Positions 1 to 40,503 of a stretch of 64,000 nt of DNA are shown piece by piece; positions within the stretch are counted from its first letter, which is position 1; the number at the start of each line of letters is the position of its first letter. The notes beneath the pieces were generated by a model. That model saw only the letters and a program-made list of their open reading frames with translations, did not search any database and had not been told where the DNA came from. This stretch comes from Candidatus Omnitrophota bacterium (lineage in GTDB: Bacteria > Omnitrophota > Gorgyraeia > Aquiviventales > Aquiviventaceae). The DNA lies in NCBI GenBank assembly GCA_016193175.1, contig JACPSR010000052.1, forward strand, positions 11,226 to 75,225, given 5' to 3'. The translations under genes and the position numbers were made by a program.

Positions 1-250
1 TGCACCACGTCCTGGACAAGCGTTGGGAAGTTCTGGGGGTGCACACCCGGTATGGCCTCATCCACCTGGCGCTCAACCTCGACCGTCACCGCGACATCGC
101 TCCCTGGAATGTTCGGCCGTGCGACCTCCAGATCTAACAAGGTGAGTCTCGGGGCCCCACTCTTCTCAGCCTGCTCCCTGGCCCAGTCGAGTTGCACCTG
201 CAGCGCGTTGAGGTCCACCAACGCCAGCGGTGTTGCGGCAGGCTCGCGTG
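1..250 (-). repeat. Internal coding repeat (pairs with 3990..4240, ~92% identical; spacing ~3990 bp), encoding PLALxDLxALQVQLDWAREQAEKSGAPRxTLLDLEVARPNIPGSDV...VDEAIPGVHPQNF.TLVQDVV.
   Basis: + strand 1-250 against 3990-4240, aligned by eye. The shadow ORFs 52..579 and 4039..4452 start with near-identical peptides. Confidence 0.9.
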
Positions 251-9200: not shown

Positions 9201-12200
9201 GGCATCTCCGGCAGCTATGATCTGCCGCACGATCGCGCCCCGCAGTTGTTTCTGGATCGCGGCGGCCCGTTCTTCCGTGGTGAGATCGCGCTGGGAGCGC
9301 TCCCTGGGCAAGACGACGTCTGGCCCGGCCAACTCTAAATCCGTCGTGGGATTCAGGCCATATCGGCGAGCTAACGAGGAGATGAGCTTGAGGTCCGCGT
9401 CGGTCAAGTCCGCCATCGTCCGAATGGTTCGGCCGGTCTGGCGGGCGTACTCGGCAATCAGCTGGCCAACCCGCTGGCGCGTGAACGCCTCGGAACGGAC
9501 CGGGGTCCTGAAGGCTTCGGCCTCCGGGATGAGCGGCGCAGGCGGTTGGACGACTCCCACGCGCCCGATGAAGTCGCGCAAGGCGCCGGCCGCCTCCTCC
9601 GGCGTTCGGGTCCCAAGATATTTGACGGTCAGGGCGCCCGCGATAAATTGCTCAAGCACTTCCTCTAAGGACTCGCGCTCTGGGAAGCCGCCTCGAGCCA
9701 GCCGACGATGCACCGCCTGTAGCAGGATCTCTTGATTCGCCGGGGTGATCGTCGTGACGCTCAAGGTATCGATCAACCTCCAGAGGCTCGTGGCCTGTTC
9801 AATCTCGGTGACGGTCGCCTGGTCGAGGCGGTTGGCCGCCTCCTCACGCAACCGCTGGAGCATGACCTGATCCTGTGCGCGATCGCCAGTCCCCTCCACC
9901 TCAAAGTAGACCCGATTGAGCGGTTCGGTCCCTGAGGCTCGAATCTTATAGCTGATGAGCTTGCCCGTCTGTGGGTTGCGAAAGACAAAGAGGAGTTTAT
10001 CGAAATAGGTCCCTCCGAATTCCGGCCGAATGGCCACCAGTGGAAATCCCGCGATCGCAGTCAGCCGCCCCTGGGCGTAGTCATCCAGGTATCCACTGAT
10101 CAACTGCTTCTTGGCCCAGGGGCTGGCGGTCACATCGTCTCGCGCGGCTTCGACATAGCCCAGCTCTTGCTCGATATCCCGGATGATCTGGGTGATGCTC
10201 TTGCGTTCTTTAGCCTGGATGGCTGCAATGAGCAGGCCGGTCAGCAAGCCGTCTTTATCCGGCATCAAAAGCGGTCGCGTCGGGCCAGGCACCTTGACCC
10301 CGATGCTGAACCCGCCGCTCTCTTCATAGCCGATGGCCACGTCGGCGCCTTTGGCCAGCGCGTCCATCATCGGAGGGCCAACGTACTTAAACCCCACGTC
10401 CACCTGGTAGTCCACCTGGTCACGCGTCACGGCATCAAGAGCCTCGTTGGCGATGAGCCGACGGTAAAAGGGATGCAGGAGTTCATCGTTCGTGCCTGAG
10501 GGCGCAACATCCCGCGGACGCAGAATCCGATCGCGATAGCGAGGATCTCGCAACAAGCCCTGGAGGACGACCTCGGTCCACAGGGTTGACGGACCGCTTT
10601 TCACGACAGCTACGCGCCTGCCGCGCTGTTGTTCGGAGCGAATCACCCGATCAATGAGCGCGGTCATGAATCGGTTCGGCGTCTCATACCGATAGTCGTT
10701 GCTGGCGGGGTCCCACCCAAAGACCCCAATCCGATCACCGTCGGTATCATTGCCTTGAATCGAGATGGGTCGGGAGGGCCTGGCCAGCTCCAGGCTCCCC
10801 GCCTTGCGCATAAACGGCTCCTCGGAATTCGAGGGGATCGTCCCCAAGAGATCAGGGTTCGTGTCTCGTCGCAGTTCAACCACTCCCTCAGGCAATCCGA
10901 TGAGGTTCTTAAACAGCGCGACCATCTCTCCATGGGCTGAGCCGTAGAGATCGTCATGGGCATACCGATGTTGACGGTAAAACTCGCGCATCTGATCCGT
11001 GATGTCAGGCCCAAAGAGCGCCGTGAGCACCCCCCGGAGGTAGGCGGCATACGCCTGACGGTATTCCTCGGTGCGGACCAGCCTGAAGGAGGGGTGGCTT
11101 GCCAAACTTCTTTGGATCGTCGCATCATCCGCCTCGGCTTCTGGGAGAGGTGCTCTCAGGACTTTCAGGTCATTCAAGATCTGCCCGATGCGGTCCGTGA
11201 CCGACGTGGGGGCGGGCGCGCCGGAGGGTGGCGAGTAGCGGATCCCATACCACGGCAGTGGATTGTGGCTCGGGGTGATGTTGATCACGCCGGCGAGATC
11301 CTCTCCTACTTGGGACAACGCCCAGTAGACGGCGGGTCCCGTTGCGGTCGCTTTGTCAAAGAGGTGGACCCGGAATCCGGCACGGAGCAGAACCGCCGCC
11401 GTTAACCGTGCGACCGCATCCCCATCGCGACGGGTGTCATACGTGACGACCATTGTCTGCTTGATGGGAGAGGCCTCCTTGGCATAGCGCGCGATCGCCT
11501 CAACGGTGTAGGCGGCCTCGCGGCGGTTGAAGTCGATTCCCCACCTCGCCCGCACCCCGCTTGTGCCAAACCGCTGATACTTTTGGGCGTAGACGGCGTC
11601 AATGAGCCGGCGAACACCCGCTTCCGTCGTCCGGAACTTCAGTTCATAGAGCGCATCGTAGACCTGACCAGCCAGCAGGGCTCGGAAGGGGAGGTAGTTG
11701 TTCGGCTCCTTCGGATCCAGTGTCCCGCGCACCGCCTCCCAGACCAACGGCATGACCTCATCGCGGAGGTACCCGCGCTCCCTCAGCACGCCAAACTCCG
11801 GCCTCTGGAAGAGACCCTCCAGGGTTCGCCCAATCGCTTCCCGCAGGCCACGCATCTGCTGGAAGATCTCACGCCGCTCTTCTTCAGAGACCTTCGGCTT
11901 TTCGCCTCGAGCCTCGTAACGATACGGGCCCGCTTCCACGAGCCACAGCAAGAGGCCGGCAGCCAATTCCGTGATCAGCTCGTGCGACAGGTGCCCTGCG
12001 GCGAGGCGCTGATGCACTTCACTGAGGAAGCTATGGGCATTGTCCAAGGCGCGTGCCCGCGTGGCTGGATCTGACGCGTCCACGAACGCTCGCTTCCCCG
12101 TGATGAAGCGGTTGGCGAACTCCGATGCTGGAACTGCGCCTGCGCCGGCCGCGACACCACTCTGAGCGTCGCGGAGGCGACCCACGACGAGGCGGTCACC

Positions 12201-15200
12201 CGCTTGACGGATTGAGATGCGAGGCTCCTTCGCCTTCGCCACGGCCCACAGGTCGCGCACACTCTCGCCAATCCGTTTCCTCACATCTTTCCGGATATCC
12301 TCATGCAGCGCTTCGCGTTTCGCCTTGCGCTGCTCATTCTCGGCAGGCGACAGTTCAGGATCCGGCAAACTTGCAAGGATCTCGCGGACGCGCTTGCGCT
12401 CATGGTCGGAGACGATGGCCCCACCGGCGCTCGCCACCGAGTCGTGAAAGACGATCACGCCACGCTCGAAGAGCGTCTTGTCGGCCGCTTCTTCGATAGG
12501 ACCGTTGGCCTCCTCGACAATGAGGGTGGCCTGGACAGCCCCGACGTTCTTGGTGGTGATCGTGTTCTCCAGCGCCGCAAGAATCAAGATATCGGTCTTG
12601 CGTGAGAGGACCGCCTCGTTCCCTGCCTGCGTTCCCTCAACGACGACACTCCCGGGAATGCGCGATGCCGCCGTGATCACAGAACGCCGTTCGTCTTTGG
12701 CTTGCTTGATGAGTTCGACCTCTTCTCTCGTGAAGCCACCGACCTTGATCAGGGCGCCTCCTGTGTCGTTGATGGCCTCGACCCTTCGCTCGCGCTCCAC
12801 ATTTTCGATCAGTGCAAAGCGGGCGGCATTCCCCGCCCCGATGATCACGACGGTTGGCACATCGGGGTTGCCCCCCCGGTCCCTGATGGCTTGGCGAATG
12901 TCTTCAATCTTCAGCGCCGCATCAATGGCGTAGGTGCCACCCAGGCCTGTGGCTTCGGTGCGGACGGCAATACCACCAAGCTCGATGGGTTTGGTTGAGA
13001 AGGTGCCCAGGGCTTTGACGATATCCGGCAGATCACGCTGTTCACGAATCGCCTTCTGCCCTTCGCGGATGACGGCCCGGACGTAGGGCAGCGGGCCGAG
13101 GGAGATCTCTTCTTCATTGCGCTTGATGATGACAGGCTCACTGAACTCTGCCTGGGTGGGTTGGACGGTCGGACGGCCCGCAGCGGTCTCACGCTGGGTG
13201 AAGGTGTGCAGGTAGCCTTCGGTGAGCCAGATCATTTCTTGCTCGCCGGTGTTGACGTCTGGGGCGGGGCCGTCGATGCCGATGCCGACGATGGGGGCAG
13301 GATCCCTCTCACGCGTGATGGTGCTGGGTGCGCCCCAGGCTGAACCGATCGCGAGAAAGAGCTCTCGTTGAGCCTCGCGTGGGAATTCTGGTCGAGGATC
13401 AGACGCGCTCGTTTTCTTCAAGACCCATGTCTTGACGGCAACGACATTCCCGCCGGCATCCTTCTGGTAGCCCAGCAGCGCAACGGTTCCCTTGCCGCCA
13501 CCGGTATCTAGACCCACAGAAGCCAGCTTCAGCGTCATCCCCTTCGCGAGGCCCTGCGCTTCTTCTCTCATCCACTGCCGAAGATCGCGCACGAGCTTGG
13601 TCAGCTCCTCCTTTGGTGGAGAATGTTCTAGACGTGAGAGAGCGGCCAAGCGCGACTTCAGCGTTTCGCCCCATGCATCGGAGCCCGCATCGAGCTCACG
13701 GATGCCGCCCTGGAACGGGCCGATGCGGTTGTTATCCTGGGCGCGGACGTGTGGGAAGAACCAGGTTTGGCCATCCACTGGGAGACTCACTTCACCCTCA
13801 TGGATGGCTTGCGTGCCAACGAGCTGCTGGATCAGCTCTGGCGGGAGTTCCTCCGCTTGGGCTGCCGCTTGGGCTGCCGCGCGCATCCGCTCCTGCATCT
13901 TCGTCAGCAGCGGGTTCTGCGATGGCTCGGCAGCCCCTCGCGCGAGCGCCAGGTCCTTGATGAGGGTGATCGCCGAGGCGGCTCGCTGCCACTGGTCATC
14001 CGCCAAGACGATGAGGATCGCGTCCTGGCCATCAATCACCATCGTCCGAGAGGTATCAAATACCGCCTGTCTGCGACCCCGGACTGCAGCCGTCACGAAC
14101 GCTTCACCGGTTTCAAGGTGCGGCAGGCCGCGCACGGCATCCTGCACGACCTGATTCACCTCAGCGCTATCTTTCATCGGCTTGCCGGTCGAGATCAAAA
14201 GGGCGTAGACATCTCCTGAAGTGACAGGAACGCTGACGGCTTCCACCTCGGAATGAGGTGAATCAGGAGTTCCTGCAGGGCTTGGGATGTCTTGCTCAGC
14301 TAATACTTGTTCGAAGGTAGCTGAGAGGGCTACCCCCCTGCGCTTCAAGTCCTCCTGTGTCAACGGCACGATGTTCTGTACCGCAGACTCTTTTCGGTAG
14401 GTGTCGAGCGCCGGCTGATCACGGTTAATCGCCAGATTCAGAGCAAGCGTGACGTGTTTCGTCCCATACTTCTGGTGGATGGCCTGTAGAACCGGCAAGA
14501 GGCTGGCCTCGAGCGGCGACGCAGGGGTGTAGAGGCTTCGTTCGTCATCCACGGGGCGGGTCGGGAGCGTCCGAACAGCTTCCTTCGGCTGCTGCTGACG
14601 CAGATCGATGGTCGTGACGCCTTCCTTCTGATAGAACGGGACGTCTTTGTTGTAGCCAAGGTCAATGACAAAGTCGACCTCAGGCAGTGTGGAGAGATCT
14701 GTTTCATTGCGCACGCTGAAGTTCAGTTGGTCTCCAAGACTCACGACGTAGTCGCCCGCCGTGGTCTTCCCGTGATTGATCGGGACGTCCAAGTGCCCAT
14801 AGTCGGAGTGGGTCTTCAAGCCCTCCGCATACGCGCCTGCCGCAGATGCCGGCATCCCATTGACCCACACCAGCTCGATATCCTGATCCCGCATGCGGGT
14901 CAGGTCATAGAAGATGAGCTGATCGAGTCGGCCGGCATTCTCGGCAATGCCGTTGATCCCCACCCGGACCTTGCGGGTCAGGCGATGCGCGTGGGCTTGA
15001 CGCTTTGCCTTAAGGGCTTGGGCCAACTGACGCGCCGTGCGGACGATCTCCTCGGCTGGGACAGGCGGGGCGGCCGCTGCGGCCGCTCGTCCCCTGCGAC
15101 GCCTGCCGCCTCCACCAACCGCCTCGGGGGGCGCTGTAGGCTGCTGGAGCTTCCCGGCAGCTTCCAAGATATGCAGACTTTCAGCCAGGTCATTGACCCG

Positions 15201-18200
15201 CGCCACATACCCCCATTCGTTGTCATACCAGGGAGAGACGACGACGTACTTCCCGACCGGCCGATCATCGGTGTCGGTGAGCTCGCGCCCGCGCTCATCG
15301 AAGACGCGGATGCGGTCTTCATCAATGATGCTGCTGATTTCACTCTGTTTGACCAAGCCCATGGTCACGTTCTTGGTGACTTGAAGCATCCGGGGATCCT
15401 TCGCGGCCTTGTCTTTGAAGGCCTGGACGACCGCCTTTCTCGTCGCCGGGATTCGCAATGTGGCCCGATACACCAGCATAGACACCGTCGCGGTGGGCAC
15501 GCGGATCGCCAGCCCATTGTGCGGACCGGGGGCGCTCCCGTCGATCGTCTCGATCATCTGCATGGTCGAGATCGACGAAGCCGCTCCGGTCGTGGTCAAG
15601 CCGCTCTCGCGCGTCGCTGGAAAGGCCCGGCTCGGATCCCCCGAGGCGAAGCTCTGCACCGGCGACTGCGTGTTCGTCACGGAGTGGATGGTGATCATCT
15701 CCCCTCGCTCCACCCCAAAGGCGTGATTCAGCGCGGCGACAACCGTTGCCAGCCCGTTGGTGGTGCAGGACGCCACGGAGTGAATGCGCGGATCGATGAG
15801 CTCCATGAGGTCATCCACCGTGGCCCCCAGCACCACCATGGGGGTCTGCGCATCGCCGGGTGGGTTGGTCATCTGCACCTTGGCCGCGCCGTTGTTGATG
15901 TGCTTCTTGATCGCCCCGGCCATGGTATAGGCTTCGCGATCCCCCGAGGAGTCAACGATGTACAGCCGGTTGTGGCCGCCGGGACCCTTGACGTGGGGGG
16001 CGTCCTCCCATTTCTTCCAGGGGAGGACCTGACGCTCGTTATCCACCAGCATGATCCACCCGCCGATCGAGACCCAGTCTTGTCGATAGCGTGTGCCGTT
16101 GATCTTGAGAAAGTGGCCGTACTTGATCTCAAGGCCTTCAAACAAGCGGCCATACGTTGAGTCGCTCTCCGCCATCTTTTGGGCAAGGCGCGCCAACGGT
16201 TCTGAGCCGACCCCGTTCAGATGGATCACGTTCATCCCTCCGCGCCGCAAGGCTTGCGCCAGGTCAAGGAATCCAACGCGTCCCAGGCCGTTAATGGCCG
16301 TCGGGATGGGGTTGGCCAGCACCCGATTCACAAACGCTTCCTGCTCCGCTCGCGTCGTGAACGAGAGACGCCCCGACTTGACCAACCGCTCAACCAACTG
16401 CTCGGTGGGTTTCCGGCGTTCTTCATTCGGAACGAACTGTTCCACTGTCCCGCCAGCTTGCACGGGGATCGCATCCACGAGGTTAGCCTCGGTCAAGGGA
16501 GCGGTCAACGCCGTCAGAGGCGGCGCCTGAAGCTGCGGGCCGGCGACGGTCCCCGACAGCTCCTCGATGCGGCGTTTGAGCTCCGGGGAGGTGGGCGCGG
16601 CTTCTTGCGCAATCGTCAGGTAATGCTGCGCCGTGAACGGGTCATCCTTGCCCTCGGTCCTGGCCAGGTGGAGGGCCAGCTCTGCCGCCTGGTTGCGCGT
16701 GTCAGGATGCAGCTCGTGCGCGTTGTAGGTGTTGAGGAGGAAGCGCAGGAGTTGCAACGCATTCCGATCGTCGTTGTCCGATGGCACCGTGATGGCATCC
16801 TGTTCGAGCTCACTCAGCTCAACCGCTTGCAGACCGTCTTGCTGGATGCGGCGGGCACGGAAGTACCCTCGCGCCGCCTCCACGCGCCGACGGTGTGTCG
16901 GATGGCGGTTGTAGGCCAGCGCATCCGCGAAGGCTTCTTCGGCTTGCTCAAAGAGCCCCAGGTCTCCATACGCCACACCGAGCCGATACGCGGCGTAGGC
17001 CCGCTCGCCGTCCGACCGAGCCGCGCGCACCTGGGCGCGCCAGACGCTGATGTCGGTCTCGATAGTGAACCGGTAGGTTCGGTGGAGGCCGGAGGAGGAC
17101 ACCTGCAGTTGCTCGAGGGTCAGCTCGCCGGTCTTGGGGTTGACCTCGGGCGCGGCCATCGCCCGGCCATCGACGTCCACCCACGGCACCGGACTGACCG
17201 CGGTGAACCACGTCGCAGCAGGGCCTCGCACGAGGTGCTTGGCCTCGTCCGACGAGTCAGAGTCGTACTCGGTCTCCCACGAGACCGCCTTCGTCCGACG
17301 CGCCAGCATGGCGGCAAGCAGCGCGATCTTCCGGCGGTCCTCTTGAAACAGCGCATCGGACAACCCGCGACGGGTCAGGGACGCCCGATGCTCCTGAAGA
17401 AGCGCGGTGAGCGCCGCGGCGATCTCCTGCTCTTTCTGAGCCACTGCGTGCTGTGGGTGTTGCATGATCGCCACGACCCGAGGATGGGTCCACACCGTCT
17501 CATCCTGCGCCAGCTCGATCATCTCATCGAGCGTGTAGCGCTGATAGTCGGAGGGTTCGAAGGAACCTTTCTGGGCCTCGCTCCAGACCCTGGCGGCGGC
17601 CAGGCGCGCCTTATACGACACCTCCAGCCCTGCGGCCATCGCCGCCTTGATGGCCATCTCGGGCGAGGCGCCGATCCCCCACAGGAGATGCAGCCGGTTT
17701 CCGTTCGATGTCACATCCTTCGCCGCCACGGAGAGCACCGGAAGGACGTCGCCGTCTCGGAACGTGTAGAGACCGCCGATCTCAAGAAGGCGTCGGCCGA
17801 GGAACCTGATCGGCGGTAGTTTCTTCAATTTCAGCGGCTGGCCGGTCTCGATGGCCGCCGCGACGGCCTCCTGCAGCCCGGTCCATGCCTGCTCGTCGAT
17901 CGCCCGGCCCCACAGTTGCTCGAGGCCGGCTCTCAGTTGAACGCGATCCTCTTGCACCAAGCCGCCCAGCGCCTTCCACACCGCGTCAAACTGCTTCTCC
18001 CTTCCGAACTTGGCTTCCCATGCGGCCTGCAAGAACGGGCGGTTGCGGTCTCGGTAGAGCGCCGCGCTGCGGAGGTTCTTTGCGCTCACGCCCACCGCCT
18101 TGGCGACGGATTCCAAGTTCTTCGCAGGCGGCGCGTTCAAGTCGACCCTGCGCGTCGCTCCCTTCGGCGCGAAGACATACTGGCCGTAGATATCGACGGC

Positions 18201-21200
18201 GCGCAGCGCCCCGCTCGGCGTCGTCACCGACGCCACGGAGTTGGCCCCCGGCACCCCTGGCGCTCCGATCCGGGCGGTCACCTCGAGCGGGTCGACCGAT
18301 AACGACACGCTGAGCCTGGTGATGGCGAATCGATTGAGGCTCCGGCTGGCTCGCCCCAGATGGCGGTCACGGCCCAGGGTGGGCGCTTCATCCCGCCGTC
18401 CTTCCGCGTTGTCGACCCGGGCGTCCACATCGATGGCGCCAAGGCCCGCGGCGATCCCCTCGGTGGTGCGCCGATCTGCGCCCCGCTTCACTGATTCACG
18501 ATTCGCATCGTGGGAGAGATCCGGCAGGATGCTCATGACGGCGGCGGCTGTGGGCGCTCCCATGCCGGCGAGCGTCTCGAACCGGCTCGGCGCGGCGGCG
18601 CGCGACGGGCCAGCAAGGTTCGTCTCGGCCGCCTCCACGCGCCTGATCCCGACGACGCGCGGATTGACGTGGCGCATGACCCGCTCGGTCCCCAGGCGCA
18701 CTTTTTCACGCTCAGCCTCATCCAACGCGCCGCTTTGCCTGAGGGCTTCGACCACAAGGAGTGTAAAGTCAACCTCAAAGGCGCCTGCCATCTGCCTGAG
18801 CAACCCTCGGGGATTTTCCTTGATCGCCGATTCCAACTCGTCGCTCGGCAAAAGCTGTGCGAAGACTGCCGGGTAGTTGCGCGGTTCGATCGCTCCATTG
18901 GCCACTCGTTGGACCAAGGCCTTCGCAGGAGCGGCCAGCCACCGAAGGCGACTCTCCGAGGTCAGTCGATTGACTCTCGTGCGGGTCAAGTAGTCTGAAA
19001 CGTTCAGGGGGCGGGAAGGAACAGGCAGGAGCTGCTCAAGTAGGATCAGCGCCTCGTGCTTCACCAAGTCGCTGTTCGCGTATAAGGCGAACCACACCAG
19101 CTCCGCCCGGACCCTCGGAAGAACGTCGCTGCCAGCTGGCGCTCTGGAGGCAGCCGCGGCGATGATCCGCAAGAGGCGCGCTTGATCTTCCCAGGATGGC
19201 GCGCCCAACGCCCTGGCTCGAAGCGTCTCGATCGTCTTCGTCGTCACCCGATCGAACTGAGCAAGCAGCCCCACCATGATGTCCAGAACGCCCGGATCCG
19301 ACTCCGTCCCGAGCCGTTGCTCAACACGGCCTTGCACCTCCTGCGCGAGCGGTTGATCCTTCAGGAGCACGGCGATCTCAGCCAAAAGCGCGACGGCCAC
19401 CCGTCGGACGCGCGGGTGGCCATGGGTCAATCCGGCCTGATCGTTGGAGGAGGCCAATAACGCCCGCGCGAGGTTCTCGATCCGTTCTCTGGGAAGACCC
19501 TTGACCGCAGCCAGCAGGACATCGAACCGATCGTTGTACTGGTCATCGGACGCGATCACCAACAGCGCATCGTCAAGGGCGGCACGCCATCCGTTCTCTC
19601 GTAACGCGGCGGCCAATCCGTTCGCTTCGACAAGCGGTTGGACCTCCGGCTGGGGGGAAGGGTATGCCGCCAGCGCAGCGGCTCTGCCTGCCTCGCTCAG
19701 TGCAGGCTTCACAGCCAGGATGGCGCTGGTCAACGCTCCGGTCCGGAGGCTCGTGGAGCCGAACATCAGCACGGACAGCTCAGGGAGCCTCGCGTAGTCG
19801 TAGACGTTCTTGGCATCCATCGCCCCGCCGTAGCCGAGCTCGATCGCTTGCGCGACGTCCGAGCCGAACTGCTCCGCGAGCAGGCGGCGGATGGCGCCGA
19901 GCACGTCATTGACGTCGGCCGGGGAGAGGCCCTTCTTCTTTTCTGGGGCTTTGTTGGGGTCTGCCGCATTGGAGAGCTCAAAGACGATCTTGATCTTCTG
20001 GAGAGCAGACGGGGAGAGGCCGGCGAGACGCGAGAGGAGCTGCCGGCGGAGCACGGTTTCGCGCTGGTCCCAGTCGGCGTCATTGACGTAGACCACGAGG
20101 ATGGGAGCGCGGCCGGAATCGAGGATGACGGTGAGACGTTCACGCACTTGGGAATCGCTTTCTCGGAGCTCTTGATGACCAACGACGACGTACGGCGGAT
20201 CCCTGCCGGCTGGAAGCAGGTGGGGATTCTGCAAACCGAGCTGAACCCCCTGAGGTGCTGCGAGCGGCCGGCCCGCGCCAAGGTCGGCCACGGACGGCAT
20301 CGGCGGCACCACCACGATCGGGCCAGGCGCGCCACGTTGGACGTCCGTCAATGCGCTCAGGTAGGCTCTGGGCTCGCCGGGAAGCTCGAACCGGTTCTCG
20401 CGCTGCCAGAGGTGCACGATGATCGCACTTGGATGCTGCCGGCGGATGCGGCGCACCTGCTCCAGGGCGGCGGCGTCGGTTCCAGCCGCCACGACCCCAG
20501 GGGTCGCTCCGGCCCACGCGCCGCTCAAACCGGCACCGGCCTCCGTCTCTGGAAGCGCCACGATGACGCGCCCCAGGTTGTCGTCGCTGACGCCATCGAG
20601 CAAGCCGGCGCTCGGCATCGCTCCGGACGAGGCGAGCACAATCGGCCGAATCCCGTTGTCGAGGCTGGCCTTGATCCGGGCGTTGCCCTGGCTCACATCC
20701 GCCCCATCGACCAGCGCGTACTGCACGCCGGCGTCTTTCAACATCCTGGCTGACACCGTGCCGGTGAACCGGCCGGACTCCTGCCGAACCTCTGGAGCGC
20801 CGACCGCGATTCCGACGCGGGCCCATGCCTCGCGCTGCAGGGCGGCCTCAGGCGTCTCGGCCAACAGGTGCGCCCCCGGCAACACGATCACCTCCACCGG
20901 CAGCCCTGCGACGGCCACGCCGAGGCGCTCGAGCTGCCGCTGAACAGGTTGATCCGCCGAATTGGCTTTATGGTTGGCGATGAACGTCAGGCGCTTGCGC
21001 GGAAGCGGCGGGATGCCCAATGCCGTTGCCGCCTGGTCACCCAACGCATCGACCACGACCGGCGGGAGCGGCGTGTTGCCCAATCGCCCGCCCGGCATGG
21101 CGTTGATCGTCTCTTCCACGAGGTCGGAGACCCTGCGGCCCCCCACCTCGGTCGTGGGAGCCAGGGCCCGACGGTAGCGCCTCATGCTCCAGGTGCGGTT

Positions 21201-24200
21201 TGTGTCCTGCTCGCTGTCCGTCCCAAAGCCAAGCTGGATCACGCTGATGAGGTGCTCGCGATCCGCTTCCGACAATGTCCCAAAGGCCCCCTCACGGAAC
21301 GGGAGGGCAAAATTCTTCATGTTGTCCTTGAACGCCTTCACGACCTCCTCCGTTGTCGCCTTCAGCGATTCGTCCACCGCCGTGAACGCCCGGAGATGAG
21401 CGAAGATGGCTTCCTGCGTAGCGGGAGGCAACGCCTTGAATTTCTCAAAGACCGCCTTGTTCTGGGCGAGCACCCAGCCGAAGATCCTCCGCTGTATCGC
21501 GTCCGGCAGCCCGAGGAACAGGAGCCACTGCCACTGGGTAGCGATGTTGGCTTTGGCGAACAACTGCCACAGCGCGCGCCCATGGGGATCCTCTTCGATT
21601 GGCGCTTCAATGTCCCGGGGATCTTCCCCTGAGGTGCCGTGCTTCATGAGCTCTGTTCTGATGGGCATCTGGGAGCCGTTGACCGAGATCGTCGTGCCTT
21701 CCAGCGCGGTAAAGATCTTCGCGGCGGAGGTTGCGACCATGTTGTAGTACGCTCGCGCATCAGCCGCAAGGCCTCGCGGGGCGCTGGCAACAGCGAGGAA
21801 ATCAGGCTGAGCCAATCTGAGGATTTCCTCTTCACTCAGGTGCGCATACCGCGGATCCGTGTTCCATCGGTCGGCCCGACGTCTTGCCACTTCCTCGATA
21901 AACAGGCGCGCTTCAATCGGCGTCGTCGCACGCTTCTTTCCATCCTCCATGACCCCGGCCTCGCCGACATCCGTCTCCAGCGATGCCCAAGGCGGCAACA
22001 GGGCGCTCAACTCCCCGACAACTTCCACGACGCGCTTGTAGCCGGCGGCCGCGATCTCTGGTTGGAGGGCTTGTGCCTCAGTGTCTTTCGACCTCCCCTG
22101 GAGCGCCATTTCCACAATCAAGTCGCTCTCCGCTTGAGTGAGGGGTGGCTTGCTGAGCATGCGGCGTAACTCGTTGGATGATCTGATCACTGTCTCCTCA
22201 ATCAGCGCTCGTGCCGCAGCCTCGTCATACAACTGGGTCGCATAGATCGCGAAGGAGGTGTAGCCGGCCCGCAGCAACCGTGGGATGAGCTGCTGCATTC
22301 GCTGAATTTCCAGCTCCTGCTCGGCTTCGGTCTTCTTCTTCTCGACCCGCAGGTTGTCCGCATGGAGCGCCCACAGGATGGCGCGATTGGCCCTGGCAAA
22401 TTCCTCCGCGGCGATCCGCCTGGCGGTTTCGGCAAACTCCTCGTACGCGTTCCAGGCATAGCCGGTCAGCGCGCCGGATTTCTCCGCGTCGCCTTCCGTC
22501 CCGGCAATCTGGAGGATGAGCGGTTGGTTCGCCTCCAGCGCATCCCGGAACGCGGCCCGAATGATCTCTTCGGTGCGCCCGGTATTCGTCACCGTCGTGG
22601 AGACGATCTGATGCGCGCGCAAGCCCTCCCGGATCAGCCGGGCGCTGACCGGAAGCACGGCCAGACGCTGCGTGATTTTTTCTCCCAACCCCGGCAGCCG
22701 TCCCAATCGCTCAAGGAGGCGCTGCTGGACGTTCGGGTCGGTGTTCGTTTTTAGCAACTCAAGAAATCGTGGGAGCTCCTGCCGCAGCGTGTCATCGTCC
22801 CAGCGTTCAGGACTGGGGGTCAGTGGGGCGGCGGGAGGCGTGGGAACCAGCGCGCTTCGCTCACGCCGGTGGATCTCGCCCAGGCGAGCCAACAGGCCGT
22901 TTGCCTCCGCCACGTTCGTCACGGACGTCCGGATGACATACCCCTGAGGCCGAGCCTCCGGCGCCAGCGCGGCCAGCTCCATTATCTGCTCGGCGCTTGC
23001 GCTGACCCCGTAGACGCTCACAAAAGAGGCAAGGCGCTCGCCATAGTCGCCCCTGAGCGCGTGACGGATGATGCTGATTCCCTCACCGACTTGCTCGGCC
23101 GTAGCGCCAGGGCTCGGGTCATAGACCGGGACCGTCAGCAACACCTCGTCATCGCGCAACCCCCGCAGGAGGCTGCGCAGTTGAAACTGAACCAGCTCAG
23201 GTGTCAGGCCGGCGCGTCGCTGCTCCTCGGTGACACCGAGCATGAGGAGCGGATGCCTGCCCCGCTCCACCACGGCCTTCACGATCCGATTGGCCGCGTC
23301 AAGATCGCCACCGAGGTCGGCGGGGTTCACCACCGCATCCCGAAGCTCATCCGGCAGACTCGTCACAGCCTTCGGATCCCTGAGATGTTGCCATCCGACA
23401 CGAATGCCACGAGGCAGTTGAGCGAATGACCCTCCGAATAAGGGGCGGTTGAGATTGATCAAGACCCGGCGATGCCCAAGCGCTCGAAGCTCCTCAGCCA
23501 ATCGGAGAAACTGCTCAGGGGGCACCGGATGGGGCGACTCGACAAGCACGGTCTTTCCAGCGTTTCCCTGGAAGAGGCGACGGTACGCGGCCTGGCCGAC
23601 CTGCTGCGGAGTCATGACGATTCCATCAAACGTCTTCAAGAGCCCAGCGAGGGTGTCCGTCTCAAGCGAACCGTAGGCCGATCCGTCAACGATCACGGGG
23701 ATGTCTGAGATCTTCAGTGTTCGTCGGACCCACAAGCCATGCGTCGTTCTCCAGGCCTCCAGCGCATCGGCGATCATCCCCCGCCTGCTCGTGAGTCGTT
23801 CTTCATCGGCATCGGGGGGAATCCGTGATTCGTCGCGGATGACAATCCGCGAGAGCTCCTCAGGCCTGACGCCGGCCAGCAACCCGGCCACCTCCTGCTT
23901 GAGGCCAATCTCCTGTTCGTCGCCGTTCAACGTGACGGCGCGAAGCCCCACCACGACGCTCGCTTGGCGATCCAAGGCCACGCGGATGGCCTGGTGTCTG
24001 GAGGGAAGCGAATCCGACGGATCCGCGCTGACGACTACCGGAGCTTCGAGGGCCCCACCCGAGAAGCCCTCGATAGCCTCCTTAACTCGCTGTGAAGCGA
24101 TCTCTTCCGTCGTCGGCGCCACAATCACCGTCACATGGTCCGGGGCGCCCAGCCTGGCAAGTTCTGATGCCAACAGCCCCCCTCCAGTGAAGACCACCGT

Positions 24201-27200
24201 CGCGCCTTGAGCGATCCCCCCTCCGGCGAAGAGCTCGGCATCCGCCCGGCGCGCATCTTCCGCCGTCAGGAAATCGACGCGCGGGGTCACGCCGTGGCGC
24301 GTCACCAAGTGGTTTGCGAGGATCGTCTCGAGCCGAGCCGCTACGTCGCGAGCTACACGTTGATCCGTCAGATCCTCAACCGGCTGACCAAGGGCCGCGG
24401 AGGACTGCGCCGCCAACTCCTCATCGCTCACGATCCAGGGGCGCAGCGCGTCCCAGATCGAGGCCCTGATCGCCGGATCATCATGCGTCACTAAGGTGCC
24501 CAGGAGACTTGGCAGTTCATGCATCAAGGCTTGGGGATCTCGCAACTCCACGGGAGGCTGCTGAGCCGAGGGTGTAGGGCTCATCATCTTGACCGGCCTG
24601 ATCACGCTCTCACGCAGGGTGCGCGCTGACTGCAACACCAGCACAGCCAGATCCGCAAAGGCCGCCAATCGGATGGCGTTGAGCTGGATCAGTTGCCGAT
24701 CGTCTAAGCGCGCATCTCCTTCGGTCTTCAGGTCCATCGCGTCGGCCAACAGAGCCGGAACGCGCATGACCGCTGCAGCCACATGGCCCACGAAGTCACC
24801 GACCGATTCAGCCGCTCCCTTCACGGAGCTGGGGGCCTGTGCGGCCACCTGCTCTTTAACCTTGGCAGCGGTTTCCCCGATACGGCGTGCGAGATGGCCG
24901 AGCTCCTCCTTAAACGGGACCATCTGTGCAAGAAAGTCTTTGGTATCCTTAACGGCTGCGGGCAGATTGAGGTCTGGGAGTCCAAAGGTCCTCAGCTCCA
25001 GCCGTATCCACTCCACATAGCTCTGCAGGCGTTGGAGCGTGTCGGAGAAACGCTCCAACTGCACCGCCAACTCGTCGAGATTGAACCGGCTGGTGGCGAT
25101 GTCCGAGAGCGGTCCGCTGATCTCCTCAGCCTGCCTGCGCAACTGTTCAAGCAGCTCCTTCGCTCGCCCACTTTCTCCGACCCCATAATCAACCGCCGAC
25201 CCTGCCTGCTCGGCTTTGTCTGCAGCCGTCTGAAGCAAGGCGGCCAGTTGACGGATCCACTGGGGCGGTTGGGCGCCGAACAACGGGATGGTGAATACTT
25301 TTCCGCTTACTTTGAGGTTGAGCTTGCCATCGACGATCTTGAGCAGGTCCTTCGCCACGTCGCGCAGTTTGGCGGGATGATAGGTCTTGGCCATCCCTTC
25401 GACCCACTCCAGCACGCGCTCCCCCCGTTCTGGCAGTTCGAGTGCCTTTGCCGCTTCTGGCTGCCATCGGCTCTTGAGCGTGTTGAGCGCATCCACCACC
25501 ACACTGGCCGCCTCGAGCACGACAATGACATTCGTGAGGTCTAGCTGGAGGGCGTCGATGCGCCGATCAAACTCATTCGGGCGGTCTCGCGTGATCAGGA
25601 CCTTCTTGGCGATCCCGCTGACGGTGTTGCGAATCGGCTCCGGCACCAGGGGCAGGTACTGGGCGATCAGCTCCTGGACGTGAACCTTGGCGTCCTCGTA
25701 CATCCGCTGATAGTTGTCCACCCTTTTCTGCACGGTCTCCGCCGGCAACATTCGTTCGGCAAGCCATCTCCCTGCCCTCGTCCCCATCGAGAGCGCTGCC
25801 ACGGCCACGGCAACGTGATGGAGGAATGACGACGCGCCTTCGAGTCCTGCTTCAAGCCGACTCCGATCCGGTTCAATCGCCTCGTCGAATGCTTGTTGAT
25901 AGCGCGACTTCCAGCCGGTCCGCTCAGGGTCCTTCAGGAACAGCAGGTGTTCCGGGTCCGGGTCCCGGATCAGTTCATACATCGGCTTGCCGCGCGCAAG
26001 GCCAAACAGCGGCACCGACGCCGCCGGCCTGGCCCATTCGATGCGGGTGAGGCGTCCCCACTGCGAATTGAGCTTGAGCTTCACCCCTCGCTCTCCGACT
26101 TTGAGCGCGAACACCGGACCGCCTCCAAGCTCCTTGACGGTTTCGTAGATCGACTCGAAGTCGTTCGCGACCCAATTGGTCATCACGAGCGGCTCATCGC
26201 TCAGTTTCACCGTGATGTGCGACCAGCCGGGTGGAATGACCAGATGATCTCCGGCCTGCACGCGCACGACTGTCACGTCCGTCACCAGAGCCCGAAGTCG
26301 AGGCTGCCACAGGATCGCCAGCCCTTCCCCGGCTTGGTACTCATACAGTTCTGGATATTTTGATCTTCGCCCAAACACGAGCGGATGCTCGTGCCCGAAC
26401 GTCTTGATGTACTCGACAAGACCGCTGGGATCGGTGATCGGCTCGCCAATAAGCATTGTGACGTCGTGCCGTAAGCCCCACGCCTCCGCCCTCATGCGGT
26501 CTTTCTGACTGGCGTAGACGCCTCGATACATCCGGTAGGCGACCCGCTTGCCTTCCTCACCTGCGGTCACGGCGTCTTTCTGAGTCGTGGCGAGAACTGG
26601 TTTCAGGTTTTGCACCGTCCGGTCTTGCACGTTGGTAACGACCGTGCCAGGACCGAAGTCCAGGCCGGTTCCTTCCCGATTCACGCTCATCTCGAGGCCG
26701 GCCGCTTCATCGAGCTCCTGTCCTGGCCGACGGACGAACAGCCGGTCCAGCAGCTCCTGCACCTGGCTGGCGTCCTCATACCCCACAATCGCCGGGAGCT
26801 CCACGTGCCTCGGTTGCGCGCCAGGCTTCTTTCCTTCAAGCAGGAGCCGCTGCTTGGTCACCTGCGCCTCCAGCAAGGCTACGATCGCATCCGTGCCGTC
26901 CAGACCCCGCGCCAGCAAGTTGAGCGACGCGCCGCCTCCGCTGGAGACATGTTTGAGCGCAACACTGCTGGTAAATTGATCGATCAGCCCGAATTGCTCG
27001 ATGGCCGCCGCAGAATCGCCACCACCAATGACCGATTGCTCGGCTAACAACATCGCCTGCGCAAGAGCCCTGGTCCCCTCCTGGAATCGCGGATCCTCAA
27101 ATTGCCCCATCGGACCGTTCCAAACCGCCAGCGTGGCATGCGTGAGATGTTCTGCGAAGAGCTTCCGCGTCTCCGGCCCGATGTCACGAAGATCATCGGT

Positions 27201-30200
27201 GGGGAGAATCTGATCGGCGCCCCGCACCGCGGTTTGCGTCCTCTCCGAATCGGTGAAGACGACGAAATCGACCGGTTGCACCAAGCGAATCTTCCCTTCG
27301 CGATGCAACCGCAGCACGTCCGTGGCGCTCTGCAGGGCGTCCTGCTCCTTCTCGCTCAGCGACCGGCCGACCTCTTTGCCTTCCGCCACTCTCAGCGTGT
27401 TGGCCAGGCCGCCGCCGACCAGAATCGTCAGGGGGCGTCCTTCCGCGATGGCCCGCTGCGCGATCGCGTTCATCACGCCGATCTTGTCCCCGATCTTCGC
27501 CCCGCCCATCACGACGACATCCGCCTCGGTGCGCGCCGCGCTCAGGGCGAGGATCTCCTTCTCCATCAAGAACCCTAACAAGGTGGTCTTGACCATCTGC
27601 TGGGCCATCTCGATGGCCACCTTCCCCACCGAGGCATGCGCGCCCCGATGGGCCGCCCCGAAGGCGTCGTTCACGTAGATGTCGGCGAGGTCCGCGAATC
27701 CCTTCGCATAGTTCTGGCTGCCGCCTGATTCCTCTGCGCTGCGAAAGCGCGTGTTCTCAAGCATCAGAACTTGCCCAGACTGCATCTTGCGGACGGCCAG
27801 CCGCGTCGGCTCGCCGACAACCTGCGCATCATCAGACAGCATGACGCGCTGACCGAGGAGATCTTCCAGCCGCTGGGCCTGAGCCTTCATGCTCCAGGAG
27901 CTGCCGTCCTGCTCCTGATGGCTGGCGATGATCACCTTGGCGCCGGCCTGGACGAGCCGCCAGATCACCGGCACGGAGGCCACGATCCTGGCGTCGTCGC
28001 TGATCGTCTTCCCGGCGTCGCTGAAGGGCACGTTATAGTCGACCCGCACCAGGACGCGCTTGCCCGCGACGGCGGCGTCGTCGTAGCGCTCCAGATACCC
28101 GTACAGCGACAGCGCGTCGAGCTCAGGATACCGCGCGATGAAGGCCTGATGCTCTTCCTCCGTCAATCCGACGGATATCCGCGAGGGCTGCGTGGTGGAA
28201 ACCGTCGAGGGGTTGAAGGAGAGGACCGACCCCATGACCAGGGCGGCCCCCATCCCTTCGGGCACGGCCGGCGGCCCCACCTGCAACGCCTGGATGGCAT
28301 CAGCGCCAGGGAGAGGGATCGCGACGTTCCTGGTCGCATCGGCGGCGCTGTCAAAGATGTTGAGGAAATCAGGAAGGTGTGGGCTGACGAGGGGGAACAA
28401 CCACAGGTACAGCAGATAGAGGCCGAAGGCGCCAGCTATGATCGCGATGCTGATGATGGCGATCGTTTTCGCTTCGCGAAGAACCTGGACCCGCCATGGA
28501 ACCGCAGGTTGTGCAGCAGGCTGCGCAGCTTGTGGTGCCGCTGGAGGAGCGGTCACCGTTGGGGCTTGCGCGGAAGAAGGCTGACCCGCCCACCATCGAT
28601 CCAGCGCCATATCGGTCCGGCGAACCGCGCTGTTCCACCGTCTGACGATAGGCCGTGACATCCGTAGGAAGAGCCCGGCTTGGAGGATCACCGCCGAGAT
28701 GAGAAGAATCGTCCCCGCAGCGGAGTGTGTGTACGTGGGGACGAGTTGGCTCCCTGTGAGATAGGTGGTGTAGGCGAGGAGGAGCGAGAGGCCAAGGTAG
28801 AGGAGTTTGAGCGTGGCGTCGACGAACCAGGCGGGCTTTCGCGCGTGTTGAACGAGCACCTCAGAAAGCTCCTGCTTGACGTGATGTTGAGCGACGATCC
28901 TGCCCACAAGGCTCGGGGTGGCATTCTGGAAGGCGCGCGCGGGGCTCACCTGGAAATGGAGCGGATCAGCCAGGGCTTCACGGGCCAGACCAAACTCCGC
29001 CAGCCCGCGGAAGAGCTCCGCATCCCGTGGATCGAGCACCAGGTGCACGTCGCCCCGGGAGAGATACTCCTTCTCAATCCACTCATAGAGCGCCGCCATT
29101 CTGATGAGGCGCACGACATCTCCTGTTCGCTCCTCAGGGGCCTTCAACAGGTAATCGCTCAACCCCCCCAAGATCGTGCCGTCATCCAACCGTCCGTCGC
29201 GGTAGAGGCTGACCATTCGACGCAGGTCGGTGTAGAGGTCTGAATCCGTCAGGGCGGCCTGGGCCATGAACCACGCCGGCAGCGCGATAATCACTCGTCC
29301 GCCGCTGAGCTGAAAGGCTGGCGCCCCAGGCTCTGGATTGATCTGAAGGGTGATGGGGATTTCCTGACCGACTCGTTGCGCCTGCCCGAGGAATCCCTGG
29401 AAGTTGCCGAGAAACTGTCGCCAGATTGGAGCGTCTTCGCCTTCTTCCGGCAACGGCTGGGACGCGGCGGCCTCCTGATAGAGGCGCCGCATGCGATCCA
29501 GCAACTCATCGCTGAGGCGCGATTGGGCCTTCAGGGCCTCCGACACGAGCAGGCCGAGAAACGGCTCGAGCCGATCATAGGCTCGTCGGTAGTCGCTCCA
29601 CAGTCGCCGGCCATCCACGCCCTTGAGATCCAGGACTGCCTGTTGGGCTGTTGGCAAGGTATCGACGCGGGTCACCGCAGGCCCCAAGTCCCGCTCCCGG
29701 AACAACGTGTCTGAGATGAGCAGCCCCGGTGCAGGCTGTTGCGCAGGTTTTCTCCCTTCCGCTTGCGCTCTTGCCCGCTCGTCCGCCGCCCGCCTCTCCC
29801 CTTCGGCCTTCAGGGGTCTCGCTAGGACACCGATCTGCTCAGGTGCTTCTCGCTGAAAACTGCCTGCCGTATAGAGATGAATCTTGTGTTCGTTCCTGGC
29901 AGGCTGGATCTCACGGTGGTTGAGCGCTTGTGGCCCTTGCGCAGGCGCCCTCACCGCCTTCAGCTCCTGCTCCAGTTGCGCTTTGAGCATGCGGGTGATC
30001 CGATACAGCCGCTGGGGCTGGGTCGCCAGCTCATTCAGCTCGCGAAACGGATCGCCACCTTGGGAAAGCAGCAGCTTATCCGTCGCCAGGATCTGGCGGA
30101 TGTGGTCGGCCCCAAACACCCCTCGCCGAAGCTCATCCAGCAGCCGCTGCCGGTACGTCGCTCCCACGAGCTCAGCGTCGCTGGCATGGATGAGAATCCG

Positions 30201-38798: not shown

Positions 38799-38802
38799 CC
38801 TC

Positions 38803-40395: not shown

Positions 40396-40447
40396 GGCTT
40401 GCTGCCTGCTACGGTTACCGCGCCACGACCATCCTAATATTAAACAC

Positions 40448-40476
40448 ATAATAATAGATTTCAAAAACATTGTCAA
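40448..40476 (-). promoter_or_regulatory. Sigma70-like promoter TTGACA-N17-TATTAT, in the only AT-rich island of the window. It would drive the 530-aa gene and the downstream megaprotein gene.
   Basis: Minus strand reads ...aattgcTTGACAatgtttttgaaatctatTATTATgtgtttaatattaggatgg. The -35 sits at 40476..40471 and the -10 at 40453..40448 with a 17-nt spacer. It lies between the stop of the 5401-aa gene (40504) and the ATG at 40395, in an otherwise >60% GC window. Confidence 0.5.
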
Positions 40477-40486
40477 GCAATTTTTT

Positions 40487-40502
40487 ATTAGTGGCTTAGT
40501 GG
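40487..40502 (-). repeat. Tandem direct 8-mer GCCACTAA x2 immediately 3' of the 5401-aa gene stop.
   Basis: + strand ttagtggc ttagtggc at 40487-40502. The TAA stop at 40504-40506 is the start of the first copy on the minus strand. No clear hairpin terminator accompanies it. Confidence 0.6.
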
Positions 40503-40503
40503 C

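Follow-up and report, generated by a model that had tools for sequence, protein, structure and literature searches.

A predicted membrane-anchored multi-enzyme giant of an Omnitrophota bacterium with altered aldolase and triosephosphate isomerase modules

The subject of this analysis is a giant protein encoded on the minus strand of a 64,000-nucleotide stretch (the window) of contig JACPSR010000052.1 from a Candidatus Omnitrophota bacterium. In a first-pass annotation of the same DNA, an aldolase-like segment and a triosephosphate isomerase (TPI)-like segment had been flagged as possible pseudoenzymes or reused folds; what went unrecognised there is that both segments belong to a giant protein, approximately 13,000 residues long or longer, of a type known from Omnitrophota. 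Throughout, G denotes the translation of window 3..38909, in which the first base of residue r lies at window coordinate 38909-3(r-1). The reading that we lean towards is that this chain is a membrane-anchored multi-enzyme giant, mostly catalytically competent, in which the aldolase and TPI modules would be degenerate or repurposed. The chain would then act as a tethered sugar-phosphate-converting assembly with most of its steps enzymatic, the aldolase-like module may, by analogy with GatZ/KbaZ, bind a ligand or act as a scaffold, either without catalysis or with an altered chemistry, and the TPI module would be no more than a slow or altered isomerase, and possibly a binding module. The motif strings quoted in the earlier annotation are real, and all of them lie in one stop-free minus-strand frame (translation of window 19500-23000, with SHQEQD further upstream; coordinates of all features are collected in Table 1).

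From the N to the C terminus, the giant protein contains a J-domain, transmembrane segments, phosphoglycerate kinase (PGK), cupin phosphoglucose isomerase (PGI), the aldolase-like domain, the TPI module, a GlpX fructose-bisphosphatase (FBPase), TPR repeats, glyceraldehyde-3-phosphate dehydrogenase (GAPDH), a glutamate dehydrogenase-like (Glu-DH-like) domain, phosphoglucomutase/phosphomannomutase (PGM/PMM), an ARMT1-like phosphatase, HAD and HEAT, as recognised by Pfam except for the transmembrane segments, which come from a hydropathy scan, and the aldolase-like domain, which was recognised by other routes. The Pfam TIM family matches G in two pieces, and domains I, III and IV of PGM/PMM were matched. 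Nearly every step between 3-phosphoglycerate and glucose-1-phosphate is represented in the chain by a recognisable domain (PGK, GAPDH, TPI, aldolase, GlpX FBPase, cupin PGI and PGM). When the motifs of these domains were inspected, the J-domain was found to keep HPD, and the GAPDH domain keeps the SCTTN Cys, His176, RVPT and WYDNEWGY. The GlpX domain retains its metal and substrate motifs (EGxRDEAP, DPxExT, DGDV and GIGAxPE), all four signature loops of PGM are present (TPSHNP, DTDGDR, GYEESGG and RASGTEP), the cupin PGI keeps GHEH together with its Glu and His (GHEH...E...H), and GGGKG and the Rossmann motif GAGNAA are kept in the Glu-DH-like domain. The mixture of retention and loss along the chain that had been proposed earlier is thus what we found, with altered aldolase and TPI modules and kept motifs in the other domains; retention of catalytic motifs appears to be the rule across the chain, and the aldolase/TPI node is the apparent exception. 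It was also observed that the GlpX domain has an insertion of approximately 87 residues between profile positions 171 and 182, and that the GAPDH domain has an insertion of approximately 50 residues within its NAD-binding domain.

The PGK domain, which lies outside the flagged stretch, is approximately 44% identical to the Bacillus (B. stearothermophilus) enzyme in an alignment to 1php, and the motifs RVDxNVP, DDxRI, LENxRF, NDAFGAAHR, GGAKxxDK, NGPMGxFE, GGGDS and GGGASL are all present. The earlier suggestion that SHQEQD stands where SHLGRP is expected held in that Arg65 is replaced by Gln (window 27906-27926), but this is the sole motif altered, and the change appears peripheral. In the basic patch, His62, Arg122 and Arg170 are kept and Arg65 is lost. 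Yeast PGK mutants at R65 stay active. In PGK, the 3-phosphate is bound by three arginines, among them Arg65, which also aids domain closure (PMC7729029). Judged from the alignment, the substitution is a peripheral and minor one. A homologue search with the PGK domain gave generic Firmicutes proteins as best matches, at 41-46% identity, with no taxonomic signal and no giant relatives among them, and the window carries no marker genes.

The residues of the aldolase-like domain were compared by aligning it with 47 members of its family, and of the 122 columns with a conservation of at least 90% in the family it keeps 61. The catalytic zinc ligands of class II fructose-bisphosphate aldolase (FBA) are taken here to be the His of LHxDH, the His of an NGxxHG-type motif and the His of the HGxSG motif, which we take to correspond to His110, His226 and His264 in E. 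coli numbering; this assignment rests on knowledge of the motifs, and a comparison of the free-standing homologue P0098 with the PDB gave no class II FBA chain from which residue numbers could be transferred. It had been proposed that a zinc-ligand His of this segment is replaced, and the alignment bears this out: the window has Asn at the second His of LHxDH, where all 47 homologues have His, and in addition Arg at the second zinc-ligand His (family motif NGSxHG; His in 47/47) and Tyr at the invariant Asp of AIDAS (Asp in 47/47). The invariant Asn, Gly and Ser of NGSxHG, next to the Arg, are also altered or deleted, and Gly G5444 replaces the Arg of the NTR motif, which is again found in every one of the 47 homologues. 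The relative P0001, a 345-amino-acid (aa) fragment on a 1.2-kb JGI contig, likewise reads LHADNL; the His-to-Asn change is therefore conserved and no private lesion. The third zinc-ligand His, in an invariant column, is retained, together with the LHAD Asp G5518, Glu5645, Glu5650, Lys5786, Asn5788 and Thr5791, and the catalytic Asp of LHxDH and the Lys/Asn of the KxNxxT motif (D5518, K5786, N5788, T5791) are accordingly among the kept residues. Since the LHxDH His is Asn and the NGSxHG His is Arg, two of the three zinc ligands are gone, and it is very unlikely that the module works as a canonical Zn-dependent fructose-bisphosphate aldolase.

The homology of this domain to class II aldolases was accepted on the basis of intermediate sequences, full-length alignment and predicted fold, the direct sequence match being non-significant. 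Against the window segment, PF01116 gave an E-value of 0.068 and 13.1 bits, below the Pfam gathering score of 25.5, over profile positions 26-70 only. No aldolase was matched in sequence searches of the PDB and NCBIfam with the segment, PF08013 gave no match to the window domain at E up to 10, and a word-indexed homologue search with the whole 997-aa segment returned no matches. A HMMER search of 1.84 billion representative proteins yielded three useful matches, namely P0001 and the free-standing P0073 and P0098, the latter two at E 8e-8 and 3e-7. Both P0073 and P0098 are members of Pfam F_bP_aldolase (PF01116; E 1e-27 to 1e-30), and these free-standing homologues also match PF08013. The window domain, which is 44-49% identical to P0001 depending on the alignment used, aligns end to end with P0001, P0073 and P0098, and a profile search recovered "class II fructose-bisphosphate aldolases" of approximately 380 aa from methanogens, DPANN archaea, Planctomycetota and Brocadiales. 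An AlphaFold2 (AF2) model built with the 47-sequence alignment reached a predicted local distance difference test score (pLDDT) of 69.3 and a predicted template modelling score (pTM) of 0.70, and its top Foldseek matches in the PDB were tagatose 4-epimerase 9kcs, class II FBAs of H. pylori, Giardia and Thermus, the tagatose-bisphosphate (TBP) aldolase 1gvf and the GatZ-like 2fiq/3txv (E approximately 1e-5, probability 1.0). The domain is thus predicted, from these sequence links and the modelled structure together, to be a genuine but very divergent class II aldolase fold.

Compared with the free-standing FBA subfamily of approximately 380 aa (e.g. P0098, P0152 and P0213), the window domain is alignable end to end at 26-32% identity and shares the motifs WALHAD, AGYTSFAI, LExxVGExG, HGxxG and KxNxxTxW; it differs in lacking two zinc His, the AIDAS Asp and the NTR Arg, in carrying two insertions of approximately 55 and 27 residues, and in falling below the PF01116 threshold. 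GatZ/KbaZ (PF08013) are class II aldolase-fold subunits of tagatose-bisphosphate aldolase that are described as non-catalytic. The window domain resembles them in its class II aldolase fold and incomplete metal site, with 2fiq/3txv among its top fold matches; unlike them, it has no PF08013 match, and the window yielded no GatY-like catalytic partner.

In the TPI region, homology is highly significant. Pfam TIM (PF00121) matches in two stretches at E 1e-25 (90.9 bits vs a cut-off of 20.1), and PDB TPIs match down to E 2e-14, again aligned in two pieces. The equivalog level was not reached, with 41 bits for TIGR00419 against a cut-off of 130.6 and 37.5 for PRK00042 against 293, and the best NCBIfam match was the PGK/TPI fusion model. 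With a profile of 46 TPIs, two domains were obtained, one in which profile 3-125 corresponds to G5973-6091 (43.5 bits) and one in which profile 89-248 corresponds to G6239-6398 (91 bits); they lie approximately 150 residues apart and overlap in profile 89-125, so that beta4-alpha4-beta5 is matched twice. Self-alignment of the two halves scored 35 vs a shuffled mean of 37, and the duplication is visible only against TPI profiles. By hhalign, with queries of G5965-6165 for module A and of G6156-6405 together with the closest relative (L006, below) for module B, the first module spans beta1-alpha6 (probability 99.0 over template 5-211 of 269) and the second beta1-alpha8 (probability 99.8).

Catalytic residues were found to be divided between the two modules. 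Module A keeps Asn10/Lys12 (FIANHKAN) and loop 3 (GRFTGTVSARMLKDAG), has lost His95 (YALVDGAD), does not clearly retain Glu165, has a loop-6 relic (AWAGAT) and is without beta7 and beta8. In module B, beta1 reads IIVHLWQRE, in which Asn10 is Leu and Lys12 is Gln (WQ is also found in L006). This copy has lost loop 3/alpha3 and retains His95 (VVVGHQELRE) and Glu165 (IVFELS). Loop 6 of module B reads LSNAADPNKAPEKKKG, the canonical lid PVWAIGTG being replaced, and FEL..DPxKAP is kept in L006. The phosphate loops of module B are YGGA and FGSTSL (vs YGGS / GGASL), and LGYGGAMDAK is identical in L006. CVGE is VVYV, and the Glu129/Trp168 partner positions of loop 6 are lost. Even in the most favourable chimera of the two modules, 13 of 32 near-invariant TPI columns are altered, including the loop-6 hinge and lid and the CVGE Glu, vs a mean of 0.95 and a maximum of 7 in genuine TPIs. 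The duplication proposed from the first reading is therefore real, with a first copy that lacks His95 (VDGAD) and a second that has GHQELRE, but it is only partial; similarly, the downstream core does keep GHQELRE but is not fully intact, having Leu/Gln at Asn/Lys, no loop 3 and a replaced loop-6 lid. Overall, the TPI region is read from these alignments as a partial tandem duplication, (beta1-alpha6) followed by (beta1-alpha8), with the catalytic residues split between the copies. Relative to canonical TPI and PGK-TPI fusions (Thermotoga-type, NF010569), the region is alike in its TIM-barrel homology and in having Asn, Lys, His and Glu each somewhere within it; it is unlike canonical TPI in the partial duplication, the split catalytic residues, the replaced loop-6 lid, the deletion of loop 3 in the copy with His and Glu, and scores far below the equivalog cut-offs.

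Table 1. Positions of the features in the window and in the translation G (empty cells: no value available).
Feature	Window coordinates	Strand	Position in G	Remark
Giant gene	1..38846	-		at least 12,948 codons; ATG 38846 start; cut by left window edge
PGK domain	26913..28082	-		Pfam E 7e-101, 338 bits
Motif SHQEQD (PGK)	~27923	-	G3663	~5 kb outside the flagged stretch
Class-II-aldolase-fold domain	21360..22655	-	G5419-5850	from intermediates, full-length alignment, AF2 + Foldseek
Motif ALHADNL	22352-22370	-	G5514	
Asn in WALHADNL	22353..22355	-	G5519	second His of LHxDH, first zinc-ligand His
Tyr in FAIYAT	22242..22244	-	G5556	invariant Asp of AIDAS
Arg in LAVASAPRGLA	21774..21776	-	G5712	second zinc-ligand His
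His in KHGTSG	21639..21641	-	G5757	third zinc-ligand His, retained
TPI module A	20436..20993	-	G5973-6158	beta1-alpha6
Motif VDGAD	~20711	-	G6067	
TPI module B	19704..20435	-	G6159-6402	beta1-alpha8
Motif GHQELRE	~20180	-	G6244	
Motif ELGYGGAMD		-	G6357	
Motif FGSTSLRTG		-	G6383	
GlpX domain	17514-18488	-		
GAPDH domain	15297-16298	-		
Glu/Leu/Phe/Val dehydrogenase domain	12400-13570	-	G~8447-8840	
HAD domain	~4940-5060	-	G~11325	
5,440-aa open reading frame	40504-56826	-		Sigma70_r4 helix-turn-helix matches, TPR repeats, ~13 hydrophobic segments, PPDK_N
PPDK_N (pyruvate phosphate dikinase ATP-binding)	44035-46074	-		within the 5,440-aa open reading frame

Relatives of the segment were few. 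A first scan of genome contigs and two scans of metagenome contigs found none, and a second scan of genome contigs found two, L006 and L007. L006 (JBBQYF010000055.1, labelled as an Elusimicrobiota metagenome-assembled genome, MAG) is the closest relative found, at 42% identity over G6138-6400; in it, a module B TIM is followed by GlpX (5-811 and 1712-2251), collinear with the window, and WQ, VVVGHQEL and LGYGGAMDAK are shared. The contig of L006 begins inside module A. L007 (JAGOOP010000005.1, an Omnitrophota MAG) carries at 3-16355 a fragment of an open reading frame (ORF) of more than 5,451 aa with glucoamylase, GH94, TPR, TIM, HATPase_c, ARMT1, signal peptidase II-like, HAD and HEAT domains, and shares with G the order TIM...ARMT1...HAD...HEAT. 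In the TIM module of Omnitrophota giant proteins (L007, P0056 and P0270), Glu165 is replaced by Leu and YGRG is found; TIM modules in this protein class can therefore be catalytically dead. These Omnitrophota fragments are approximately 30% identical to G in the TIM and ARMT1 domains, and their TIM domain, like that of the window, lacks 4 residues after GHxE and has a longer loop 6. The contigs of L006 and L007 differ from the window in G+C content (GC), at 52-54% vs 63%.

In West-Roberts et al. (2023, bioRxiv 10.1101/2023.11.21.568195), the sections on these proteins describe Omnitrophota "Archaeovorins" with many transmembrane helices, TPR and PPDK, and less commonly TPI, PGI, FBPase, PGM/PMM and FBA; their domains were predicted to be extracellular, a puzzle to the authors, and giant proteins were linked to prey attachment. 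A 2026 preprint (10.64898/2026.06.07.730766), in the parts that bear on these proteins, groups Omnitrophota giants that contain PGM, HAD and HEAT into a "multi-enzyme metabolic" class. The giant described here is like these proteins in its length of more than 10,000 aa, its several transmembrane segments and its many enzyme domains tiled with TPR/HEAT. TPI, PGI, FBPase, PGM/PMM, FBA and TPR, given for Archaeovorins in those sections, are all found in the window, with PPDK_N in another chain, the adjacent 5,440-aa ORF. It differs from them in that SecA_DEAD, glycosyltransferase, glycoside hydrolase, NUDIX, methyltransferase and C39/S8 peptidase domains, which those sections also give, were not detected in the 64-kb window at Pfam E<0.01, an absence that is not proven because genes are cut at both window edges. 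Here at least three ORFs and a 530-aa gene share the content, and PGK, GAPDH and the Glu-DH-like domain fall outside the list in the sections of West-Roberts et al. on these proteins.

The frame itself has the properties of a coding sequence. In a frame scan, the minus strand is stop-free over window 1..38909 (12,969 codons) and the frame runs off the left window edge; the start of the gene is placed at ATG 38846 by gene calls on identical Logan contigs. Codon-position GC is typical of coding DNA in every segment tested, both flagged domains included (GC1/2/3 approximately 0.64-0.75 / 0.45-0.52 / 0.77-0.84), in a window with an overall GC of 63%, and the plus-strand ORFs over the flagged stretch are short and non-coding in appearance. 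Window 28803-42597 was assembled with 100% identity in five independent runs, SRR12113385 to SRR12113422. SRR12113421, a neighbouring run in that series, is from groundwater in Modesto, California, and the source is taken to be an uncultivated bacterium of groundwater. A crude hydropathy scan placed hydrophobic segments of the giant protein at approximately G58, 980, 3397 and 3482 (window approximately 38735, 35970, 28720 and 28465), of which those at approximately G980, 3397 and 3482 are strong. All three strong segments lie between the J-domain and PGK; at face value, approximately 9,400 residues with ATP-/NAD-dependent enzymes would be non-cytoplasmic.

Several observations weigh against the reading that we favour, some of which point to a chain that works throughout and some to one that does not work at all. 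It is rather unlikely, but worth setting out, that the chain is a fully working metabolon in which all sugar-phosphate domains are active, the aldolase having an altered metal site (Asn, Asp/Arg, His) and the TPI being a nested hybrid barrel with module A beta4-alpha6 and module B beta1-beta3 looped out. On the aldolase side, the Asp of LHxD, the third His, the Glu residues and the Lys/Asn are retained, Asn plus Arg/Asp could in principle serve another metal or chemistry, and several class II aldolase-fold proteins, e.g. the top fold match 9kcs, are epimerases; however, the module has lost two of the three invariant zinc His together with the invariant Asp and Arg. On the TPI side, retention is complementary, with Asn/Lys and loop 3 only in A and His95, Glu165 and the YGG/GxxSL loops only in B, as would be expected under selection on one composite active site. 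The chimera of A(beta1-alpha3) and B(beta4-alpha8), with G6065-6237 removed, holds all four catalytic residues (Asn, Lys, His and Glu) and is the best full-length match to the TPI profile (140.5 bits vs 95 for B alone), and the other pathway domains appear intact. Against this stand the loss of the loop-6 lid and of its Glu129/Trp168 partners, and the finding that beta1-beta3 of module B is colinear with the TPI profile and as conserved in L006 as its beta4-alpha8 (40% vs 45% identity), which fits a self-contained barrel B. An AF2 model of the region (pLDDT 75; Foldseek to TPIs at E approximately 1e-15, template modelling (TM) score 0.70-0.77 normalised to target length) cannot decide the topology, because its MAFFT alignment imposed a third register in which only module A beta1 was aligned with TPIs. 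A single TIM barrel with one simple insertion was also considered, and was weakened by the hhalign result, in which module B has its own beta1-beta3, and by the equal conservation of that part in L006. The colinear whole-barrel alignment and the conservation of beta1-beta3 in B favour two separate modules of which neither would have a full catalytic set. The other arrangement, which we consider unlikely, is a nested hybrid barrel in which A beta1-alpha3 and B beta4-alpha8 would form the active site and the inner segments would have decayed to an inserted alpha/beta domain; it would be an intermediate between duplication and permutation or fission, within one tethered polypeptide that spans 3-phosphoglycerate to glucose-1-phosphate.

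In the opposite direction, the enzyme-like domains might all be ligand-binding, sensing, scaffolding or decoy modules of an envelope-associated giant for attachment or predation, an alternative that we hold to be improbable. The hydropathy scan puts everything after G3482 outside the cytoplasm if the J-domain is cytoplasmic, and a topology with ATP- and NAD-dependent domains outside the cell is hard to square with enzymatic function. The sections of West-Roberts et al. (10.1101/2023.11.21.568195) on such proteins likewise predict extracellular domains and link the giants to prey attachment, an Omnitrophota relative has a TIM without Glu165, and the aldolase and TPI modules of the window are degenerate. 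However, catalytic, metal and cofactor motifs are kept in PGK, GAPDH, GlpX, PGM and cupin PGI at only approximately 25-45% identity to free enzymes, and because cupin PGI, GlpX, GAPDH and PGM keep their catalytic motifs, wholesale structural reuse is not the best reading. Thus, the suggestion in the first-pass annotation of pseudoenzymes or reused folds applies to the aldolase-like and TPI modules, which are degenerate, but not to the chain as a whole. Neither full integrity nor a lack of homology was found for the flagged segments: the alignments show losses in the aldolase-like domain, in TPI and at PGK Arg65, and the aldolase-like domain is linked to its family via P0073/P0098 and the predicted fold. 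The single point in favour of a misassembly or a relic, with the substitutions as neutral decay, is the great rarity of relatives in public data; nevertheless, an artefact or a decaying pseudogene was rejected as extremely improbable in view of the stop-free frame, its coding-type codon-position GC, the identical assembly in five runs and the conservation of the altered motifs in relatives of 42-49% identity. A membrane-anchored and mostly catalytically competent chain, with degenerate or repurposed aldolase and TPI modules, is the reading to which we give somewhat more than even weight, although only two or three relatives are at hand and very few sequences speak for a conservation of the substitutions.

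Outside these modules, some further features of the chain and of its neighbourhood were observed. The Glu/Leu/Phe/Val dehydrogenase domain, of which the dimerisation domain was matched only partly, is off the gluconeogenic theme. Motif I of the HAD domain reads FDLTGTL: where phosphatases carry the second Asp of DxDxT it has Thr, as do P-type ATPases (DKTGT). Motifs II-IV of the domain appear intact. On the same strand before the giant frame, the frame scan found open frames of 5,477 and 2,430 codons; nearly all of window 1-63998 is filled on the minus strand by three successive giant ORFs, the first with at least 12,948 codons, the second with 5,440 and the third with more than 2,382, and hydrophobic segments were found in all three by the crude hydropathy scan. 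Neighbouring ORFs overlap slightly (38803-38846 and 56709-56826). Between the first two giant ORFs lies the gene for a 530-aa protein with an N-terminal hydrophobic segment and no Pfam match, which is 100% identical on contigs from the same five runs. The PPDK_N of the 5,440-aa ORF is divergent (E 6e-11 when the segment was scanned alone), and it was overlooked when a 3,000-aa piece was scanned whole.

Taken together, the giant protein belongs to the known Omnitrophota-type multi-enzyme giants, and the residue-level picture of its active sites and the split TPI are new; active-site residues of embedded enzymes are not mentioned in the 2026 preprint, as judged by a term search, or in the sections of the 2023 preprint on these proteins. 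Giant multi-enzyme proteins of uncultivated bacteria have been described recently and, in the parts of those reports that concern them, are characterised by Pfam domain lists alone. A residue-level view of one such chain turns the question of whether it is a metabolon or a scaffold into a testable one. The relative in an Elusimicrobiota-labelled MAG suggests that the architecture reaches beyond Omnitrophota, and the complementary catalytic residues across two TPI copies would represent a rare natural case that bears on the evolution of TIM barrels by duplication.

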